Shown in pieces: positions 20,312 to 51,917 of a stretch of 64,000 bases of DNA (positions are counted from its first letter, which is position 1; each line of letters opens with the position of its first letter). This DNA comes from Escherichia coli (GTDB lineage Bacteria; Pseudomonadota; Gammaproteobacteria; Enterobacterales; Enterobacteriaceae). A model generated the notes under the pieces. The model was given only the letters and a program-made list of their open reading frames with translations. It searched no databases and was not told where the DNA came from. The DNA lies in NCBI RefSeq assembly GCF_003018115.1, contig NZ_CP027457.1, one strand, 5' to 3'. The position numbers were made by a program, and so were the translations under genes.

Positions 20312-21520
20312 TCAGGCTGTCGCCTGAATCATTTCGGTGGGTTCCTGCTTCAACGGGCGGCCTGACTGCACCATCCCTCCACAGGCAAGAACGGCGTGCC
20401 CCGCCGCTAAAATGTTACGAGCGCCGTTTACATCGGCGTTCGCTGTATATCCACATACCGGGCATCTGAATTGACTTTGTGACAGGCGATTTTCTTTCGC
20501 TGTATGACCACAGCACGCGCAACGCTGGCTTGTGTACGCTGGCGGAACAGCAAGCACCTGACCGCCACGCCAGAGCTGCTTGTACTCAAGCTGGCGGCGC
20601 ATTTCATACCAGCCCTGATCCAGTATCGAACGGTTTAAACCTGATTTTGCCCGGACATTGCGCCCCGGCAGGCTGACCGTACCCGATGCTGACTTTGACA
20701 TGTTGCTGACCTTCAAATCCTCAATGACTATCATTGCGTGGTTTTTGCTGACGGTCGTTGTGACTTTGTGAAGGTAGTCCCTGCGGATATTTGCGATACA
20801 GGAATGCAGTCGCTGTATTTTGCGTTTCTGCTTCTGCCAGTTGTTGCTGAATTTGACCTTGCGGCTTAACTGTCGCTGAAGTCTCGCCAGCTTCTTCTGG
20901 TTTTTCTGAAAACTGTTTACAGGCTCAAAGGCTGTGCCATCTGACAGCGTGGCGAGTTTAGCCACGCCAGCATCCAGCCCGACCATTGATGCTGAAGGGT
21001 GAACCGGAGTTGATACTTCACTTTCTGTCTGAATACTGATGTACCACTTACCGCAGGACTGGCTGACCGTGACATTTTTCACAACACCCGTGACCTGACG
21101 GCTATTCCGGTAGCGCATCCAGCCCAGTTTCGGCAGAAAAATACGGCTGTTTTCCTGATCGAGCTTAACGCCCTGCGGGTAGCGGAATGCATCATTCTGT
21201 CCCCGCTTTTTGAATCGGGGAAAAGCAGCCCGCTTCTGGAAGAAGTTTTTGTAAGCCCGCTCAAGGTCTTTCAGTGACTGTTGCAATGGCTGTGAGGGCG
21301 AATCTTTAAGCCATTGCGTTTCAGTGGCGTTTTTCCACTCAACCAGCCAGGAAGCCATTTTCCCGTAAGGGATGTATTTATTACCGGCCTCATGATTCTC
21401 ATTCTGACGTGCCAGAGCACGATTGAAAACGAAACGACATGCGCCTGCGAAGCGCCTCATTTCACGCTCCTGTTGACCACCGGGTCTTAACTGGAATTTA
21501 AATGCCTGTAGTCGTTTCAT
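20312..21520 (-). CDS. tnpB: IS605-family TnpB/OrfB, RuvC-like with C-terminal CxxC...CxxC zinc finger (402 aa from [10 protein letters not shown])
   Basis: [14 protein letters not shown]-terminus, C-terminal CACCGH...CPVCGY zinc finger typical of TnpB. Confidence 0.85.
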
Positions 21521-21542
21521 GGGCCAAATCATACTTTGGCCT

Positions 21543-21958
21543 ATGAAAAAAGAAACCGATATCCGACGCGGAAGGCATTGTGTTTTCCTGATGCATGTTC
21601 ACCTGGTCTTCGTTACTAAATACCGACGTCAGATTTTTGACTATGACGCGACAGAAAAACTACGCACTTACTTTTCAAATGTATGTGCTGATTTTGAAGC
21701 TGAACTGGTTGAAATGGATGGCGAACCAGATCACGTCCATTTGTTAATTAACTATCCTCCCAAACTGGCGATATCCAGTCTGGTAAACAGCCTCAAAGGC
21801 GTATCGGGTAGGTTACTGCGACGAGATCGACCAGATATTGCAGCCAGGTATTACTACAAAGCGTTTTGTGGAGTCCTGGCTATTTTGCCAGTAGCTGCGG
21901 TGGTGCACCAATATCCATCATCCGCCAATACATTGAACAACAGCAAACACCTGGTTAG
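21543..21958 (+). pseudogene. tnpA: IS200-type Y1 (HuH) transposase TnpA, apparently frameshifted before the catalytic-Tyr motif
   Basis: HVHLLI HuH motif in frame 0; conserved C-terminal SSCGGAPISIIRQYIEQQQTPG is encoded in the +2 frame after ...YYYK (shift near 21858-21863); the frame-0 ORF instead runs on to 22046. Confidence 0.6.
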
Positions 21959-40113: not shown

Positions 40114-42845
40114 CGCATCTGGAACTGGTTCCCGTCCCGCCTGTCGCGCAACTGGCGGGCGTGAGCCAGCATTATGGAAAAACCGTTGCGCTGAACAATA
40201 TCACACTCGATATTCCGGCCCGTTGCATGGTCGGGCTGATTGGCCCGGACGGCGTCGGGAAGTCGAGCTTGTTGTCGTTGATTTCCGGTGCCCGCGTCAT
40301 TGAACAGGGCAATGTGATGGTGCTGGGCGGCGATATGCGCGACCCGAAGCATCGCCGCGACGTCTGCCCGCGCATCGCCTGGATGCCGCAGGGGCTGGGC
40401 AAAAATCTCTACCACACCTTATCGGTGTATGAAAATGTCGATTTTTTCGCTCGCCTGTTCGGTCACGATAAAGCGGAGCGGGAAGTGCGAATTAATGAGC
40501 TGCTGACCAGCACCGGGTTAGCACCGTTTCGCGATCGTCCGGCAGGGAAACTCTCCGGCGGGATGAAGCAAAAACTTGGGCTGTGCTGCGCGTTAATCCA
40601 CGACCCGGAACTGTTGATCCTTGATGAGCCAACAACGGGGGTTGACCCGCTCTCCCGCGCCCAGTTCTGGGATCTGATCGACAGTATTCGCCAGCGGCAG
40701 AGCAATATGAGCGTGCTGGTCGCTACCGCCTACATGGAAGAGGCCGAACGCTTCGACTGGCTGGTAGCGATGAATGCCGGAGAAGTGCTGGCAACCGGCA
40801 GCGCCGAAGAGCTGCGGCAGCAAACGCAAAGTGCCACGCTGGAAGAGGCGTTTATAAATCTGTTACCGCAAGCGCAACGCCAGGCGCATCAGGCGGTAGT
40901 GATCCCACCATATCAACCTGAAAACGCAGAGATTGCCATCGAAGCGCGCGATCTGACCATGCGTTTTGGTTCCTTCGTTGCCGTTGATCACGTCAATTTC
41001 CGCATTCCACGCGGGGAGATTTTTGGTTTTCTTGGTTCGAACGGCTGCGGTAAATCCACCACCATGAAAATGCTTACCGGATTGCTGCCCGCCAGCGAAG
41101 GTGAGGCGTGGCTGTTCGGGCAACCGGTTGATCCAAAAGATATCGATACTCGCCGTCGGGTGGGCTATATGTCGCAGGCGTTTTCGCTCTATAACGAGCT
41201 CACCGTGCGGCAAAACCTTGAGTTACATGCCCGTTTGTTTCACATCCCGGAAGCGGAAATTCCCGCAAGAGTGGCTGAAATGAGCGAGCGTTTTAAGCTC
41301 AACGACGTTGAAGATGTTCTGCCGGAGTCATTGCCGCTCGGCATTCGCCAGCGGCTTTCGCTGGCGGTGGCGGTGATTCATCGCCCGGAGATGTTAATCC
41401 TCGATGAGCCTACTTCTGGCGTCGATCCGGTGGCGAGGGATATGTTCTGGCAGTTGATGGTCGATCTCTCGCGCCAGGACAAAGTGACTATCTTCATCTC
41501 CACCCACTTTATGAACGAAGCGGAACGTTGCGACCGCATCTCACTGATGCATGCCGGAAAAGTGCTCGCCAGCGGTACACCGCAGGAACTGGTTGAGAAA
41601 CGCGGAGCCGCCAGTCTGGAAGAGGCATTTATCGCCTATTTGCAGGAAGCGGCAGGACAGAGCAACGAAGCCGAAGCGCCGCCCGTGATACACGACACCA
41701 CCCACGCGCCGCGCCAGGGATTTAGCCTGCGCCGTCTGTTTAGCTACAGCCGCCGCGAAGCGCTGGAACTGCGACGCGATCCGGTACGTTCGACGCTGGC
41801 GCTGATGGGAACAGTGATCCTGATGCTGATAATGGGTTACGGCATCAGTATGGATGTGGAAAACCTGCGCTTTGCGGTGCTTGACCGCGACCAGACCGTC
41901 AGTAGCCAGGCGTGGACGCTCAATCTCTCCGGTTCCCGTTACTTTATTGAACAGCCGCTGCTTACCAGTTATGACGAGCTTGATCGTCGGATGCGTGCGG
42001 GCGATATCACGGTGGCAATTGAGATCCCACCCAATTTCGGGCGCGATATCGCGCGTGGTACGCCCGTGGAACTCGGCGTCTGGATCGACGGTGCAATGCC
42101 GAGCCGTGCCGAAACGGTAAAAGGTTACGTGCAGGCCATGCACCAGAGCTGGCTACAGGATGTGGCGAGCCGACAATCCACGCCCGCCAGCCAAAGCGGG
42201 CTGATGAATATTGAGACACGCTATCGTTATAACCCGGACGTAAAAAGCCTGCCAGCGATTGTTCCGGCGGTGATCCCGCTTCTGCTGATGATGATTCCGT
42301 CAATGCTAAGCGCCCTTAGCGTGGTGCGGGAAAAAGAGCTAGGGTCGATTATCAACCTTTACGTGACCCCCACCACCCGTAGCGAGTTTTTGCTTGGCAA
42401 ACAGCTGCCGTACATCGCGCTGGGGATGCTGAACTTTTTCCTGCTCTGCGGTCTGTCGGTGTTTGTGTTTGGCGTACCGCATAAAGGCAGTTTCCTGACG
42501 CTCACCCTGGCGGCGCTGCTGTATATCATCATCGCCACCGGAATGGGGCTGCTGATCTCCACCTTTATGAAAAGCCAGATTGCCGCCATTTTCGGTACGG
42601 CGATTATCACGTTGATCCCGGCGACACAGTTTTCCGGGATGATCGATCCGGTAGCTTCGCTGGAAGGGCCGGGACGTTGGATCGGCGAGGTTTACCCGAC
42701 CAGTCATTTTCTGACTATCGCCCGCGGGACGTTCTCGAAAGCGCTGGATCTGACTGATTTGTGGCAACTTTTTATCCCGTTGCTGATAGCCATACCGCTG
42801 GTGATGGGCTTAAGCATCCTGCTGCTGAAAAAACAGGAGGGATGA
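40110..42845 (+). CDS. rbbA: Ribosome-associated ATPase RbbA (two ABC ATPase domains fused to an ABC-2 permease domain, 911 aa)
   Basis: Two Walker A motifs ([18 protein letters not shown]), two ABC signatures, C-terminal TM domain. Confidence 0.9.
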
Positions 42846-43969
42846 TGCGCCATTTACGCAATATTTTTAATCTGGGTATCAAAGAGTTGCGCAGTCTACT
42901 CGGTGATAAAGCGATGCTGACATTGATTGTCTTCTCGTTTACGGTGTCGGTGTATTCGTCAGCGACCGTTACGCCAGGATCGTTGAACCTCGCGCCGATC
43001 GCCATTGCCGATATGGATCAATCGCAGTTATCGAACCGGATCGTTAACAGCTTCTATCGCCCGTGGTTTTTGCCACCGGAGATGATCACCGCCGATGAGA
43101 TGGATGCCGGACTGGACGCCGGGCGTTATACCTTTGCGATAAATATTCCGCCTAATTTTCAGCGTGATGTCCTCGCCGGACGCCAGCCGGATATTCAGGT
43201 GAACGTCGATGCCACGCGCATGAGCCAGGCATTTACCGGCAATGGGTATATCCAGAATATTATCAACGGTGAAGTGAACAGCTTTGTCGCGCGCTACCGT
43301 GATAACAGCGAACCGTTGGTATCGCTGGAAACCCGGATGCGCTTTAACCCGAACCTTGATCCCGCGTGGTTTGGCGGGGTGATGGCGATCATCAACAACA
43401 TTACTATGCTGGCGATTGTATTGACCGGATCGGCGCTGATCCGCGAGCGTGAACACGGCACGGTGGAACACTTACTGGTGATGCCGATAACGCCGTTTGA
43501 GATCATGATGGCGAAGGTCTGGTCGATGGGGCTAGTGGTGCTGGTGGTATCGGGATTATCGCTGGTGCTGATGGTGAAAGGCGTGCTGGGCGTACCGATT
43601 GAAGGCTCGATCCCGCTGTTTATGCTGGGCGTGGCGCTCAGTCTGTTTGCCACCACGTCAATCGGCATTTTTATGGGGACGATAGCGCGTTCAATGCCGC
43701 AACTGGGGCTGCTGGTGATTCTGGTGCTGCTGCCGCTGCAAATGCTTTCCGGTGGATCCACGCCGCGCGAAAGTATGCCGCAGATGGTGCAGGACATTAT
43801 GCTGACCATGCCGACGACACACTTTGTTAGCCTCGCGCAGGCCATTCTCTACCGGGGTGCCGGATTCGAAATCGTCTGGCCGCAGTTCCTGACGCTGATG
43901 GCAATTGGCGGCGCGTTTTTCACCATTGCGCTGCTGCGATTCAGGAAGACGATTGGGACAATGGCGTAA
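42845..43969 (+). CDS. yhhJ: ABC-2 type permease YhhJ (374 aa; start at the second ATG of atgatg, overlapping the rbbA stop)
   Basis: Matches YhhJ from [15 protein letters not shown]. Confidence 0.85.
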   Translation: MRHLRNIFNLGIKELRSLLGDKAMLTLIVFSFTVSVYSSATVTPGSLNLAPIAIADMDQSQLSNRIVNSFYRPWFLPPEMITADEMDAGLDAGRYTFAINIPPNFQRDVLAGRQPDIQVNVDATRMSQAFTGNGYIQNIINGEVNSFVARYRDNSEPLVSLETRMRFNPNLDPAWFGGVMAIINNITMLAIVLTGSALIREREHGTVEHLLVMPITPFEIMMAKVWSMGLVVLVVSGLSLVLMVKGVLGVPIEGSIPLFMLGVALSLFATTSIGIFMGTIARSMPQLGLLVILVLLPLQMLSGGSTPRESMPQMVQDIMLTMPTTHFVSLAQAILYRGAGFEIVWPQFLTLMAIGGAFFTIALLRFRKTIGTMA

Positions 43970-43980
43970 GGAAGGGAAAC

Positions 43981-44033
43981 TTGACTTCATACTGTGATGT
44001 CATACTATTGATGTCATAAAGTGAAGTCATAAG
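43981..44033. promoter_or_regulatory. Operator-like cluster of four (t)ga(t/a)gtcata repeats upstream of the hicA-like gene
   Basis: ttgacttcata / tgatgtcata / tgatgtcata / tgaagtcata read from sequence, with acttca...tgaagt inverted pair. Confidence 0.3.
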
Positions 44034-44041
44034 GACATGCC

Positions 44042-44317
44042 ATGAGAACCAAGGTACAGGCTTTACGGAAGAAACAAAAAAATACATTGGATCAAATATT
44101 TAAAACTCCTGTTCCTCAAGGGATCAAGTGGTCTGATATAGAGTCACTGGTTAAAGCATTAGGCGGAGAAATTAAGGAAGGAAGAGGTTCGCGTTGTAAG
44201 TTCATACTAAATATGAGCGTTGCGTGTTTCCATCGGCCTCATCCGTCGCCAGATACCGATAAAGGCGCTGTAGAAAGCGTGCGTGACTGGTTACTAAGTA
44301 TAGGGGTAAAACCATGA
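44042..44317 (+). CDS. HicA-like mRNA interferase toxin (91 aa)
   Basis: YcfA/HicA-like motifs GSRCKF...HRPHP...KGAV; 4 bp overlap with the downstream antitoxin-like ORF. Confidence 0.55.
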   Translation: MRTKVQALRKKQKNTLDQIFKTPVPQGIKWSDIESLVKALGGEIKEGRGSRCKFILNMSVACFHRPHPSPDTDKGAVESVRDWLLSIGVKP

Positions 44318-44673
44318 TCAAACTGAAGACGCCAAACTCTATGGAGATTGCCGGGCAACCTGCTGTTATCACTTACGTGCCAGAACTGAATGCATTTCGT
44401 GGCAAATTCCTGGGCTTGTCAGGTTATTGTGATTTTGTCTCTGACAGCATTCAGGGGCTGCAAAAAGAAGGGGAACTTTCCCTGCGAGAGTATCTTGAGG
44501 ATTGTAAAGCTGCGGGTATTGAGCCGTATGCGCGTACAGAAAAGATTAAGACCTTTACGTTACGCTATCCAGAATCGCTGAGTGAACGCCTTAATAATGC
44601 GGCTGCGCAGCAACAAGTCTCTGTTAATACCTATATTATTGAAACACTGAATGAGCGTTTGAATCATTTATAA
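44314..44673 (+). CDS. HicB-like antitoxin with C-terminal ribbon-helix-helix DNA-binding region (119 aa)
   Basis: N-terminal HicB-like fold region, C-terminal RYPESLSERLNNAAAQQQVSVNTYIIETLNERL resembling RHH. Confidence 0.55.
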   Translation: MIKLKTPNSMEIAGQPAVITYVPELNAFRGKFLGLSGYCDFVSDSIQGLQKEGELSLREYLEDCKAAGIEPYARTEKIKTFTLRYPESLSERLNNAAAQQQVSVNTYIIETLNERLNHL

Positions 44674-44792: not shown

Positions 44793-47596
<2,804 letters not shown>

Positions 47597-47600
<4 letters not shown>

Positions 47601-48541
47601 GCGTGCGCTCCTTCATGACGACGAATGCGCGGGTCCAGCGCGGCGTTGAGCAAATCGACAATCAAATTACAGACCACAAAAACCACCACCATCATCAGCG
47701 TAAAGCACTGAATCACCGGATAGTCACGGTTAAAAATCGCCGACACCGCATAGCGCCCGACGCCCGGCCAGGCAAAGATGTTTTCGATAATCATCGTCCC
47801 GCCAATCAGTTCGCCGATGTGCATCCCCACGGCGGTGATCATCGGCAGCGAGGCATTGCGCAGAATATGGCGGCGTTCGGTCTGTTTGTCGTTCAGGCCG
47901 CGCAGACGCGCCCAGGTGACGTGACGCTGACCGGCGACGTCCAGCATACTGGCGCGCAGTAAACGCGCGTTAATCGCCAGCGACATAAAGGCAATGGAAA
48001 CCGCAGGCAAAATGATGTGCTGCCAGCCGCCGTAGCCCATCGCGGGTAGCCATTGCAGATACACCGAAAACGCCATCACCAGTAAAAACGCCAGCCAGAA
48101 GTTAGGCATCGACACGCCAAGAAATGCGATGAAACGTACGGCGAAATCCGGCAGACGGTCGCGATGGCGCGCCGCCCAGATACCGAGCGGTACGGAAGTG
48201 AGCAGAATTAATACCAGCGCCGCACCTGCAAGTTCCAGCGTGGCGGGCAGGAAGTTCAGCATATCGTCCAGTACCGGGCGTTGGCTGGCGAATGAGATAC
48301 CAAAGTCAAGATGCAGCGCCTTCCACAACCAGGTGCCGTACTGGACGTACAGCGGCTGATCCAGTCCCAGCATGGTGCGGGTAGAGGCCAGCATCTCCGG
48401 CGTCGGCGGCAGGTTAGACAGACGCAAATAATCGAGCGCCGGGTCGCCGGTACCGAGGCGCAGCATCAGAAAAATGATCACCGAGGCGGCGAGCACCATC
48501 GGGATCAGCAGCAGAAAGCGGCGTAATACGTAACGCAACAT
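47597..48541 (-). CDS. nikB: Nickel ABC transporter permease NikB (314 aa)
   Basis: Opp/Dpp-type permease; NikB sequence. Confidence 0.9.
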
Positions 48542-50115
48542 TAAGGTTTCACCGGTTTAATCTGTTCGAACGGAATTTCGGTGGCGATCGGCGCGTAGGG
48601 GATGTTACCCAGCTCCGGTTTTGATACCACCATCATTGAGATGTAACTGATAGGCAGATAAACCGCCTCGTCATGCAGACGGGTCAGAATGTCGCGATAC
48701 AGCGCCTGACGTTGCGTTTCGTCATGGGTCGCCAGCACTTCGCCGATCTCTTTATCAATCAGCGGTTTGTCGGCTAATCCTTGCTGTGCCTGGAAGTCAG
48801 CGTGTGACGGTACGCGCATTGAACTGAGGAAGGCGTGTGGATCGTATGGCGCGCCCCAGGTGCGGTGGAAAATCATGCCAAAACGACCGTCGCGCTGACG
48901 AGCATAGATACTGCTCTCTTCTTCGCCAATCAGCGAGACATCTGCGCCAATCTGGCGCAGATCAGCCTGAATGATTTCCGCCATCGATTTGCTTAACGCA
49001 TCGGTGCCGATGAACGACAGTTCAATGCGCAGCGGCTGACCATTTTTCTCGCGGATGTCTTTGCCCGCAGGCAGCGTCCAACCGGCTTTTTCCAGCAACT
49101 CTTTTGCTTTCTGCGGATCGTACTGGCGCGGTTTCAGGCCGAGGTTGGCGTAGGGCACAGAAGGGGCAAACAGGGTGTCGGCGACCTGCTGGGTGCCATA
49201 CAACGCGTTATCAATCAGCGATTTTTTGTTTACCGCGTAATTAAGAGCTTCACGTACTGCCAGCTCGTTGGTGGGGGCTTTGGCGGTATTGAGCGCCAGC
49301 ATCACGGTTTCGATCGGCTGTGACAGTTGGGTGTGGTAAGCCGGATTCTGGCTAAAGCGGGCGAAGGTATCGAGCGGTAATAACCCTTCGTTTCCGTACA
49401 GCAGGTCGATATCGCCAGTTTCAAACGCCACCGCGCGGGTAGTCGGGTCCGGGATGACGTTAAAAGTGATCTTCTTAATCGCCGGCTTTTCGCCCCAGTA
49501 GTTTTCGTTACGGACGAAGACATCGTACTGATTCAGTTTCGATTCCTGCAAAATCCACGGTCCGGTGCCAATCGGCGCTTTAATTCCGTTCATGGTTTCA
49601 TGGTTTTTAAACTGCGAGGGGGCGATAAAACGGAAAGGGCGCGGCAGGGCCAGTTCTTGCAGGAAAGGATAGTAGGCGCTTTTCAGGGTGATTTGCAGCT
49701 CTGTTTTACTGAGTGCTTTAACATCAACAATCTGGTTTGCCAGCTCCAGCCAGGCGTGACGTTGACGGTTATCGAGCACTGCGCGGAAGTTTTCTGCCGC
49801 CGCCTCGGCATCGAACGGTTCACCGTTGGAGAATTTCACGTCATCACGCAGGGTGAAGGTCCAGGTTTTACCATCTTCTGAATGAGTCCAGCTTTTTGCC
49901 AGCCACGGGATCACCGAACCGTCTGCCTGATATTTCACCAATGGTTCATAAACCATGCTCTGGGCGAACATCTGGTTAGGCGTGTAAAGGTGCGGGTTTA
50001 GTGGCCCGACATTCACCGGCCAGGCGGTGGTGATTTCATCTGGTGCAGCGGCATGGACGATAAAAGACGCACAAGCCAGCAGCGCAAATAGAGTGCGGCG
50101 GAGTGTGGAGAGCAT
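48541..50115 (-). CDS. nikA: Periplasmic nickel-binding protein NikA (524 aa)
   Basis: Signal peptide plus family 5 solute-binding protein; NikA sequence. Confidence 0.9.
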
Positions 50116-50152
50116 GGTAACCCCAATGGATTAAAATAGATGGCGGAAATAA

Positions 50153-50180
50153 GTATGACGATTTTAAGTATTCGTCATAC
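50153..50180. promoter_or_regulatory. NikR operator GTATGA-N16-TCATAC upstream of nikA
   Basis: Exact match to the NikR dyad with 16 bp spacer, about 40 bp upstream of the nikA start. Confidence 0.6.
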
Positions 50181-50225
50181 TGATTACCTGTTCTGGATCA
50201 ATAGATGGGCAGTCGGGTGGGCGGA

Positions 50226-50813
50226 TCAGTTAACTGAATCGATCCATTGCACACTGTCGGCGGTGAGCGTAAAGGGGGTGGGGGTGCAGATCGCAAGGCT
50301 TAAATTTTCAAGCTGACAATGGCTGACTGACAGCGAGGAGTGATAGGTGCTGTCTACGCTGACGATTTGCCAGGCGCTGCCGCCACGCTGTTTAACGATG
50401 GCTTCTTTGCGCGTCCAGATGCGCCAGAACATTTCCAGTTGCTGATCAGGATGCACGGCGTCCATCTCAGCGTGTTCCCCGAGGCTGAATACGGCGTTCG
50501 CCAGCCAGCGCCAGTTGGCGCGCGGGCGAATCACTTCGATATCGCAGCCGACTTCGCCTTCATCACTCAACAGCAGGGCGATATCGTCACCGCTATGGCT
50601 TAAGTTGAACCATAGCGGCATTTCCGGCGCAAATGCAGGTTTGCCTTGTTCGCCATAGATGATCTCCGGTAGCGGGGAAAGCGTGTGCGAAAGCAATGCA
50701 CGCCCCGCCAGCCAGCGTTCGCGTCGTGGACCTTGCGGTGCTTGCTCGCGTAAACCCGGTGGCAGTGGAGCTGCGCTTAAGGTCGAAACTTTCCCCAGAA
50801 CTATCCGATACAT
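50226..50813 (-). CDS. acpT: 4'-phosphopantetheinyl transferase AcpT (195 aa)
   Basis: Matches AcpT; position next to nikA. Confidence 0.8.
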   Translation of the reverse strand: MYRIVLGKVSTLSAAPLPPGLREQAPQGPRRERWLAGRALLSHTLSPLPEIIYGEQGKPAFAPEMPLWFNLSHSGDDIALLLSDEGEVGCDIEVIRPRANWRWLANAVFSLGEHAEMDAVHPDQQLEMFWRIWTRKEAIVKQRGGSAWQIVSVDSTYHSSLSVSHCQLENLSLAICTPTPFTLTADSVQWIDSVN

Positions 50814-50867
50814 ATCAGGGCCAACGTTTAATGGAAAATGAAAGTGCGTATCGTATCACTTGTCGCC

Positions 50868-51917
50868 TCATCCCGGTAACCGACTTTTCGGTCTGCCCGG
50901 CCCCAGTAAAATCGCCAGTTTGCTGCCACCTTTCGTCGTTTCCATCCAGATTTTACACACGCTGGTTAATGGCACCGAAAGTAGCATCCCTACCGGGCCG
51001 AGCAGCCATCCCCAGATTAACAATGAAAGAAATACCACCATGGTGGACATCCCCAGGCGATGGCCCATCATCCGTGGTTCTAAAATATTGCCGATGACCA
51101 TATGGACCACTAAAAACAATGCGCCGACCAGAATACATTCGTAAACACCATTAAACAGCAGCACCTGAATCATTGGCGGTACGGCGGAAATTACCGCGCC
51201 GATATTGGGCACGTAGTTGAGCAAAAACGCCAGTACTGCCCACATCAGCGCAAACTGCACCCCCATCAGCTCCAGCCCCAGCCAGACGATGACACCTGTC
51301 CATAAACTGAGTAGCGTCTTCAATGCAAGATAGTGCGAAACGCCTTTAAGTGCGCGGTGTAATCCTGCGATGTGAATCTGTGGGTTATTCAGCGCAAAAC
51401 GCATTTTGTAAGGGACGTGGCGCACTTCAAACAGCATAAAAACTACGGTCATCACCAGCAAAAGCACGCTCGCCATTGCCCCGGAAAGCCCGGTCATTAG
51501 CGCTGTGGTGAAGGTAACCACTTTTTCCGAGTCCATCCGCTGCAGCATTCGCTCCGGCGACATATGCAAATTAAGAAAAGGCAACATCTCCTGCAATTTA
51601 AAAAGTTTGCGCGTCAACTCCTTATTAAACTTCGGCAGCATAGAGATAAATTCGTTAAACGATGCCGCCAGTACGCCGACCAGCGCAGTTAGTGCGATCA
51701 GCATCACCACCACCACAATCGTAATGGCAATGGGGCGTTGTACTCCCCGACGAATAAACCAGGTGACGAGCGGGTTGAGGACGATGGCAAAAAACAGCGC
51801 CAGTAACAGCTGCACAATGATATCTGCCGCTGCGTGAATGCCCGCGAGGATCACTACCAGCGAGGCCAGCTTGAGCAGAATGTGCATGCCCGTTTTATCG
51901 GGTTGAGGGGTTTCCAT
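50868..51917 (-). CDS. yhhT: AI-2E family transporter YhhT (349 aa; start at METPQPDKTG)
   Basis: Polytopic membrane protein matching YhhT; track ORF has a 27 aa extension. Confidence 0.8.
   Translation of the reverse strand: METPQPDKTGMHILLKLASLVVILAGIHAAADIIVQLLLALFFAIVLNPLVTWFIRRGVQRPIAITIVVVVMLIALTALVGVLAASFNEFISMLPKFNKELTRKLFKLQEMLPFLNLHMSPERMLQRMDSEKVVTFTTALMTGLSGAMASVLLLVMTVVFMLFEVRHVPYKMRFALNNPQIHIAGLHRALKGVSHYLALKTLLSLWTGVIVWLGLELMGVQFALMWAVLAFLLNYVPNIGAVISAVPPMIQVLLFNGVYECILVGALFLVVHMVIGNILEPRMMGHRLGMSTMVVFLSLLIWGWLLGPVGMLLSVPLTSVCKIWMETTKGGSKLAILLGPGRPKSRLPG

Follow-up and report, generated by a model that had tools for sequence, protein, structure and literature searches.

A ribosome-binding site conserved in the last codons of rbbA and the overlapping gene starts of a putative ABC exporter operon in Escherichia coli

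In Escherichia coli, the stop codon of rbbA and the annotated start codon of yhhJ have a single base in common, and the Shine-Dalgarno (SD) sequence of yhhJ lies within the final sense codons of rbbA. Comparison of this junction with its counterparts in other species favours the ATG at position 42845 as the yhhJ start and reveals that the SD sequence is conserved at synonymous sites of rbbA. We consider it likely that yhiI, rbbA and yhhJ make up a single operon and encode an ABC exporter of three parts: YhiI as the periplasmic adaptor, RbbA with its two ATPase domains and one permease domain, and YhhJ as the second permease. Both rbbA and yhhJ begin at the stop codon of the preceding gene. YhhJ (374 aa, N-terminus MRHLRN) would be made from ATG 42845, where ribosomes are positioned by the embedded AGGAGG, and most of them would probably arrive by termination-reinitiation, having just completed rbbA at its UGA one base away. 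The output of YhhJ would thereby be tied to that of RbbA, which would fit two 1:1 halves of one membrane channel. The window, i.e. the whole stretch of 64,000 nts that was analysed (contig NZ_CP027457.1 of assembly GCF_003018115.1), contains the following features of relevance:

39046..40113, + strand: yhiI CDS, 355 aa, HlyD-family membrane fusion (periplasmic adaptor) protein (ORF, RefSeq, Pfam)
40094..40103, + strand: SD-like sequence UGGUGAGGUU for rbbA, within the yhiI 3' end; anti-SD duplex of -7.1 kcal/mol, 6 nts before ATG 40110
40110..40113, + strand: ATGA shared by the yhiI stop and the rbbA start, 4-base overlap (ORFs, RefSeq)
40110..42845, + strand: rbbA CDS, 911 aa, two ABC ATPase domains and one ABC-2 permease domain, fused (ORF, Pfam, NCBIfam)
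42761..42763, + strand: GTG, where the longest ORF in the yhhJ frame (402 aa) begins; judged not to serve as a start
42835..42840, + strand: AGGAGG, SD sequence for yhhJ, within the rbbA codons CAG GAG GGA (Gln-Glu-Gly)
42842..42844, + strand: first ATG of atgatg, alternative in-frame yhhJ start giving 375 aa and a 4-base overlap, probably of minor use or none
42843..42845, + strand: rbbA stop codon TGA (sequence, ORF)
42845..43969, + strand: yhhJ CDS as annotated, 374 aa, ABC-2 permease (RefSeq, Pfam, start conserved in orthologues)

The identities given to the three genes in the initial annotation are borne out by profile searches. YhiI scores above the Pfam cut-offs of HlyD_3 (64.1 bits, gathering threshold 22.2), HlyD_D23 (51.5 bits, threshold 30) and CusB_dom_1. 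RbbA matches NF033858, the NCBIfam equivalog model for RbbA, with 1594.3 bits (cut-off 1050) over profile positions 1-908 of 909, and comprises two ABC_tran domains and one ABC2_membrane_3 domain. The latter (PF12698, gathering threshold 31.6 bits) is found in residues 569-903 of RbbA (135.3 bits) and again in YhhJ (119.4 bits). As YhhJ is paralogous to the permease domain of RbbA (27 % identity, E 2e-27), RbbA alone supplies one of the two membrane domains that an ABC transporter needs. The conserved linkage of rbbA to adaptor and permease genes points to a transporter. No solved structure of YhhJ or RbbA was found, a structure search giving just distant ABCG and ABCA matches, and a literature search for yhhJ returned mostly gene lists and unrelated occurrences of the letters YHHJ. 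A search for an internal yhhJ promoter found no promoter-like sequence from yhiI to yhhJ; the only matches on the + strand are at 38685-38712 and 43981-44008, and fewer matches were obtained in total than expected from shuffled sequence.

At the first junction, ORFs and RefSeq agree on yhiI at 39046-40113 and rbbA at 40110-42845, which confirms the proposed 4 bp (atga) overlap. Of the 74 orthologous loci in which this junction is readable, the majority have caATGA and the others have short spacers, from a few nts up to about 14; the gtgagg motif preceding rbbA is found again in the majority of enterobacterial loci and in several other loci.

The second junction, read directly at 42834-42847, is CAG GAG GGA TGA followed by TG, so that the hexamer atgatg occupies 42842-42847 and the rbbA stop and ATG 42845-42847 share one base within the TGATG at 42843-42847. 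Sequence, ORFs and RefSeq concur with the earlier description of this hexamer as common to both genes with a 1 bp overlap, which had assumed its second ATG to be the start. RefSeq indeed places the yhhJ start at 42845 (locus position 5246) in E. coli F9792, which is 100 % identical to the window, as well as in DH5alpha, AST85 and EM10-18-28. The first ATG, made up of the last base of the Gly codon and the TG of the rbbA stop, is also in the yhhJ frame and would yield 375 aa with a 4-base overlap instead of 374 aa with a 1-base overlap. As had also been noted, the longest yhhJ ORF begins 28 codons (84 nts) before 42845 and inside rbbA, at a GTG that spans the rbbA codons ttG TGg (Leu-Trp); in E. 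coli AST85 a synonymous Leu change in rbbA turns the equivalent site into ATG. Experimental evidence on the starts or N-termini of yhhJ, rbbA and yhiI was looked for in the supplements of the TRAINSPOTTER N-terminomics, INRI-seq and AUGUG studies and not found.

The junction was compared across 78 non-redundant loci of other species in which the rbbA C-terminus adjoins yhhJ, a set that covers several proteobacterial classes and a Verrucomicrobia MAG. Each of the 78 loci has a yhhJ start close to the rbbA stop, either the ATG that corresponds to 42845 or a start codon 1-7 nts downstream of the stop. Counting a 1-base overlap as 0, the offset between stop and start is 0 in 26/78 loci and +1 to +7 in 45/78, and at 47/78 loci there is a single unambiguous yhhJ start, at an offset of 0 to +5.

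Conservation extends to the ribosome-binding site. The predicted duplex of the yhhJ SD sequence with the anti-SD reaches -10.8 kcal/mol, beyond the 1st percentile of the window background (-8.5), and AGGAGG is separated from ATG 42845 by 4 nts and from ATG 42842 by 1 nt. RbbA ends in [K/R]-K-Q-[E/D]-x-stop at each of the 78 loci. Its Gln codon is CAG in 78/78 loci where 59.1 are expected and its Glu codon is GAG in 70/73 loci where 37.4 are expected, counts from phylogenetically related species whose independence is thereby overstated. The excess includes nine low-GC Morganellaceae, in which CAG and GAG are minority codons. Third-position information amounts to 2.00 bits for CAG and 1.43 bits for GAG, versus 0.08-1.0 at adjacent codons, and the adjoining Lys codon is free to vary (AAA 42, AAG 36). 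With both codons above expectation, conservation of the yhhJ AGGAG is seen at synonymous sites. Translation of yhhJ may be the main reason why RbbA keeps its invariant Lys-Gln-Glu tail, the codons of which form the ribosome-binding site; in that case the downstream gene would dictate the C-terminus of the upstream protein.

By codon counts and third-position information, this explanation of the tail is better supported than an RbbA-YhhJ fusion made by frameshifting. Relative to rbbA, E. coli yhhJ lies in the -1 frame, and this frame stays open from 42761 onwards; a small fraction of ribosomes slipping by -1 on CUG-AAA-AAA-C (42825-42834) would give a fusion of about 1,285 aa with both permease halves, an event that we regard as extremely improbable. 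A conserved programmed -1 frameshift of the dnaX or IS type was considered and rejected: the heptamer is non-canonical, as the first base of G AAA AAA fails the X XXY YYZ pattern, and stimulators are missing, the yhhJ SD sequence lying downstream of the A-run heptamer rather than about 10 nts upstream and no stable structure being present. The Lys codons of the A-run vary between AAA and AAG across loci, and the relative frame differs among species, offsets of 0, 1, 2, 3 and 4 all being common.

Two other starts have to be weighed against ATG 42845. Initiation mainly at ATG 42842 would give the protein an N-terminus MMRHL and create the classic ATGA overlap, the commonest overlap type in E. 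coli; this codon is in frame, the terminating ribosome sits right on it, and Providencia relatives have YhhJ N-termini MMR or MIR, one residue longer, so that a 375-aa YhhJ is not implausible in itself. However, ATG 42842 follows AGGAGG by only 1 nt and the GGAG core by 2 nts, whereas unambiguous starts in 47 other loci lie at least 5 nts after GGAG. The equivalent codon is ATA, CTG, CTA, TTA or GTA in 49/78 loci and GTG in 14/78, the ATG being lost wherever the rbbA stop is TAA (Klebsiella, Salmonella, Hafnia, Shimwellia) or the base before the stop is C; Citrobacter has GTG. At none of the 78 loci is this position the sole candidate start, and RefSeq annotates 42845. A predominant start at 42842 is therefore improbable; this ATG would arise as a side effect of the GGA TGA sequence and yield at most a minor Met-Met form. 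Even less credence can be given to GTG 42761, which would add 28 residues. It provides the longest ORF, and a start codon at -84 recurs in 12/78 loci, one of them in Pseudomonas. This recurrence is due to the rbbA codons xxG TGG (Leu-Trp), of which the GTG would be a chance by-product, and 54/78 loci lack any upstream in-frame yhhJ start. Moreover, GTG 42761 has no SD sequence (the upstream anti-SD duplex of -3.1 kcal/mol is at background level), residue 4 of the 374-aa form is where homology to the family, including the RbbA permease domain, sets in, and gene callers give 374-375 aa across genera. The initial annotation had already judged this codon to be probably not used, in keeping with these data, which make its use very improbable.

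A further question is whether ribosomes reach ATG 42845 from rbbA. The overlap could reflect genome compaction only, with free ribosomes binding AGGAGG and translating yhhJ independently of rbbA. The very strong SD duplex, together with a junction that folds no more stably than shuffled sequence (z = -0.35), makes such uncoupled starts conceivable, and bioBF, one of five overlapping E. coli pairs tested, did initiate de novo (PMC6728339). However, an SD-driven independent start needs no tight offset between stop and start, and the offset is nevertheless kept between the 1-base overlap and +7 in 71/78 loci, even though protein identity is 65 % and synonymous sites are saturated. The SD sequence and the start are, in addition, partly paired in the minimum-energy fold, and the remaining four of the five native 4-nt-overlap pairs were coupled in reporter assays (PMC6728339). 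We thus think compaction alone unlikely, although less so than a main start at 42842. Translational coupling throughout yhiI-rbbA-yhhJ, as originally proposed, can reasonably be inferred from the tightness of the junctions, which is conserved, and, by analogy, from the reporter tests on other pairs. In those tests removal of the SD sequence substantially lowered reinitiation in 4/5 pairs (PMC6728339), and coupling was reported to be gone at a spacing of about 20 nts (PMC10666635). RNA structure blocking de novo initiation has been proposed for E. coli (PMC6728339); the fold of the yhiI-rbbA junction likewise has no extra stability over shuffles (z = +1.34). Gene overlaps are enriched in heteromeric complexes (PMC10666635), and a 1:1 complex of RbbA and YhhJ would be of this kind.

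Overlaps of this type are ordinary, and the feature is already known insofar as RefSeq annotates the gene boundaries in this way. By annotation, overlaps of 1 or 4 nts occur in 9/39 co-directional neighbouring gene pairs of the window; genome-wide, 24 % of unidirectional E. coli pairs lie at -8 to +6 nts, with -4 and -1 the commonest distances (PMC10666635). The importance of the present junctions is small, as few types of gene junction are commoner in E. coli. What the comparison contributes is backing for the annotated YhhJ start at 42845 against 42842 or 42761, and evidence that distant proteobacteria keep the yhhJ ribosome-binding site through the synonymous positions of the final rbbA codons. 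Conservation of the start and the SD sequence also speaks for regarding YhiI, RbbA and YhhJ as a single transporter whose parts are produced together, a point of relevance because the label of RbbA as a "ribosome-associated ATPase" rests partly on since-retracted work; a 2011 paper on RbbA and YhjD was retracted in 2025.

The closest parallels for the junctions are the overlapping co-directional pairs with an intragenic SD sequence, translated by termination-reinitiation, that were described by Huber et al. (2019, PMC6728339; 2023, PMC10666635). These have the same -4 or -1 overlaps, an SD sequence in the final codons of the upstream gene, a junction conserved across species, and products that are plausible subunits of one heteromeric complex. 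However, the E. coli tests of Huber et al., in which coupling was measured, concerned 4-nt overlaps, while rbbA-yhhJ, for which coupling is predicted, is of the 1-nt type. Within the window, nikABCDE and the heme genes (shuU / ATP-binding protein, hutX / chuY) are likewise ABC operons with alternating 1-base and 4-base overlaps, but they encode importers with separate ATPase genes and are unrelated in sequence to yhiI-rbbA-yhhJ. As to the protein parts, the E. coli ybhGFSR operon encodes the adaptor YbhG, the double-ATPase YbhF and the ABC-2 permeases YbhS and YbhR. The two systems have the same components: an adaptor of the HlyD type, a chain with two ATPase domains, and two permease domains of the ABC-2 type. 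The best NCBIfam match of YhiI is NF002939 (PRK03598, "secretion protein HlyD"), which we take to be the YbhG model; with 164.8 bits YhiI falls below its equivalog cut-off of 393 and is thus a paralogue rather than the same protein. Unlike in ybhGFSR, the double ATPase and one of the permeases are fused in the 911-aa RbbA.

Window positions 42834-42847 at the rbbA-yhhJ junction read directly as CAG GAG GGA TGA followed by TG. This reading, the ORFs and the RefSeq annotation agree with the initial annotation that the rbbA stop and the yhhJ start share an atgatg hexamer. The 4-base overlap described for yhiI-rbbA and the 1-base overlap of rbbA-yhhJ likewise match the ORFs and RefSeq, and the longest yhhJ ORF indeed begins 28 codons earlier, inside rbbA. 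The features concerned are:

39046-40113, plus strand: yhiI (ORF and RefSeq), with ATGA common to rbbA at 40110-40113
40110-42845, plus strand: rbbA ORF, 911 aa, stop TGA at 42843-42845
42761, plus strand: GTG start of the longest yhhJ-frame ORF, 28 codons before 42845
42835-42840, plus strand: AGGAGG, Shine-Dalgarno (SD) motif of yhhJ in E. coli, predicted anti-SD duplex -10.8 kcal/mol
42842-42847, plus strand: atgatg hexamer with two ATGs, each in the yhhJ frame
42845, plus strand: RefSeq start of yhhJ, 374 aa, 1-base overlap, in strains F9792, DH5alpha, AST85 and EM10-18-28

A 501-nt probe spanning the junction is 100% identical in strain F9792 and is present in 5,413 of 5,426 complete E. 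coli genomes, every match lying under rbbA and yhhJ. The overlap is confirmed as observed and its interpretation is supported, but as a feature it is ordinary and already annotated. The sole detail to be added is that the yhhJ ribosome-binding site appears to be embedded in the last rbbA codons and to constrain them across Proteobacteria.

This detail comes from a scan with one genome per species, which gave 80 loci from Enterobacterales, Pseudomonas, Halomonas, methanotrophs, Nitrosomonas, Burkholderiales, Sphingomonadales, others and one Verrucomicrobia MAG. With redundant loci of E. coli and a single truncated one taken out and the window included, the set came to 78, in all of which the rbbA C-terminus adjoins yhhJ. 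RbbA always ends in [K/R]-K-Q-[E/D]-x-stop at fixed length (42828-42842 in the window, the same position in the orthologous loci L005-L082). Relative to expectations derived from the codon usage of each gene itself, Gln is encoded by CAG in all 78 loci (59.1 expected) and Glu by GAG in 70 of 73 (37.4 expected), counts that overstate independence since the species are related; divergence is deep, protein identity being 65-70% for the loci farthest away. Both codons are kept even in nine low-GC loci (Proteus, Providencia, Morganella, Moellerella) where CAG makes up only 14-42% and GAG only 17-36% of the codon family. Information at the third position is 2.00 bits for Gln and 1.43 bits for Glu, versus 0.08-1.0 for the remaining 18 codons of the tail; the Lys codon beside Gln is AAA in 42 loci and AAG in 36. 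With third positions nearly frozen, cAGGAG is conserved at the nucleotide level, as would be expected of an SD for yhhJ. In E. coli the predicted AGGAGG duplex lies beyond the first percentile of the window background (-8.5). The RbbA tail of Pandoraea is Q-D-K (caggacaag), which gives a weaker SD.

The same alignment bears on the choice of start. Counting the offset from the final base of the stop of rbbA to the base at which yhhJ starts (0 being a 1-base overlap), yhhJ begins at 0 in 26 loci and at +1 to +7 in 45; in 47 loci the start is unambiguous, with just one candidate, at 0 to +5. The -3 codon, equivalent to ATG 42842, is made of the last base of the final rbbA sense codon and the first two stop bases; 12 loci have ATG there, 14 have GTG, three TTG and 49 a non-start codon, these 49 including every locus with a TAA or TAG stop (e.g., Klebsiella, Salmonella, Hafnia, Shimwellia). 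In none of the 78 is the -3 codon the sole candidate. AGGAGG ends 4 nt before ATG 42845 and only 1 nt before ATG 42842, while other species place their unambiguous starts 5-10 nt beyond the GGAG core, from which 42842 would be 2 nt away; this spacing favours 42845 over 42842 as the probable start. GTG 42761 is probably unused, as had been proposed: an in-frame start at -84 occurs in only 12 of the 78 loci, its upstream anti-SD value is only -3.1 kcal/mol, and homology to the RbbA permease profile begins at YhhJ residue 4. Any upstream in-frame start is absent from 54 loci. The -84 codon straddles the Leu-Trp codons ttG TGg of rbbA, which explains both its sporadic recurrence and the ATG found there in E. 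coli AST85 (L085) through a synonymous TTG-to-TTA change; drift at this site is silent for rbbA. Gene callers give YhhJ 374-375 aa in all genera sampled, and aligned N-termini begin no more than 1-2 residues from MR. The Pandoraea homologue (L050, L051, L061, L063; around position 5000 of each) still begins at a TGATG 1-base overlap, with about 30-44 additional N-terminal codons before the conserved region.

At the yhiI-rbbA junction, most of 74 readable loci have caATGA; the remainder are mostly spacers of a few nt, a few being longer, up to about 14 nt. A gtgagg-type SD precedes rbbA in E. coli (-7.1 kcal/mol). The best-supported reading is a polycistronic mRNA on which ribosomes ending yhiI would restart on rbbA, and those ending rbbA on yhhJ, aided by SD motifs located in the upstream genes. 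In reporter experiments, four of five other native E. coli pairs proved to be coupled, and SD removal substantially lowered reinitiation in four of five (PMC6728339); coupling collapses at a spacing of about 20 nt, and genes for heteromeric complexes are enriched for overlaps (PMC10666635). The main rival is that yhhJ is initiated independently at its strong SD. Neither junction region folds more stably than shuffled sequence (z = -0.35 for rbbA-yhhJ, +1.34 for yhiI-rbbA), so there is no sign of structure hiding either start site from free ribosomes. Translational coupling of the three genes is what we infer, rather than observe. A frameshifted RbbA-YhhJ fusion was considered because in E. coli the frame of yhhJ is -1 relative to rbbA and the rbbA stop is preceded, at 9 nt, by an A-run (CUG AAA AAA C). 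Such a mechanism is not conserved and is very unlikely in E. coli: the heptamer does not fit the canonical pattern, the SD follows it instead of preceding it, the junction fold offers no stimulatory structure, the Lys codons vary, and the two genes differ in relative frame between species.

Domain and profile matches bear out the proposed gene identities of membrane fusion protein, fused ATPase-permease and ABC-2 permease. YhiI hits adaptor models of the HlyD family; RbbA carries a pair of ABC ATPase domains and, after them, an ABC-2 permease domain, and scores 1594 bits against the NCBIfam RbbA equivalog (cut-off 1050); YhhJ is an ABC-2 permease and a paralogue of the RbbA permease domain (27% identity over 330 residues, E 2e-27). 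An ABC transporter requires two membrane domains and RbbA has one, so that a unit of RbbA and YhhJ in 1:1 ratio, with YhiI as its adaptor, would be the natural reading; a search of solved structures found none for YhhJ or RbbA. The deeply conserved order of adaptor, ATPase-permease and permease, together with the presumably coupled junctions, speaks for a transporter locus. The label "ribosome-associated ATPase" originates in older biochemistry. In June 2025, concerns about images led to the retraction of a PLoS One paper from 2011 on RbbA-YhjD and association with the ribosome (PMC3083400, PMC12169533), which withdraws part of the functional basis of the RbbA name. The annotated 37-aa small protein YhiY (38870-38983, plus strand), without a match in NCBIfam, is encoded 62 nt before yhiI in the same orientation and may share its transcript; a weak promoter-like site is found at 38685-38712.

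Shortly after yhhJ, this strain has a hicA/hicB toxin-antitoxin pair with a 4-base overlap (44042-44673, plus strand), where K-12-derived DH5alpha carries an ISEc1 transposase gene (yhhI) together with remnants of yhhH/rhsB. Elsewhere in the window, a cluster for heme uptake and utilisation (chuS, chuA, shuT, hutW, hutX, chuY, shuU and an ATP-binding protein gene; about 5193-14143) separates dctR from yhiD in this strain, and an IS200/IS605 element with frameshifted tnpA and intact tnpB, of the RNA-guided endonuclease family (about 20312-21958), adjoins the dinQ type I toxin gene.

The rbbA-yhhJ overlap does not exceed chance or routine. By RefSeq annotation of the whole window, 39 pairs of neighbouring genes are co-directional, and nine of these share exactly 1 or 4 nt, among them nikA-B, B-C, C-D and D-E, hicA-B, hutX-chuY, and the pair formed by shuU and the heme ATP-binding protein gene. 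Genome-wide, 707 of 2,987 unidirectional E. coli pairs (24%) lie within -8 to +6 nt, -4 being the most frequent spacing, then -1 and -8 (PMC10666635). In nikABCDE (about 44793-50883, minus strand) the overlaps alternate 1, 4, 1 and 4 bases, with nikR following after a 5-nt spacer; its junctions are of the same style as those of yhiI-rbbA-yhhJ.
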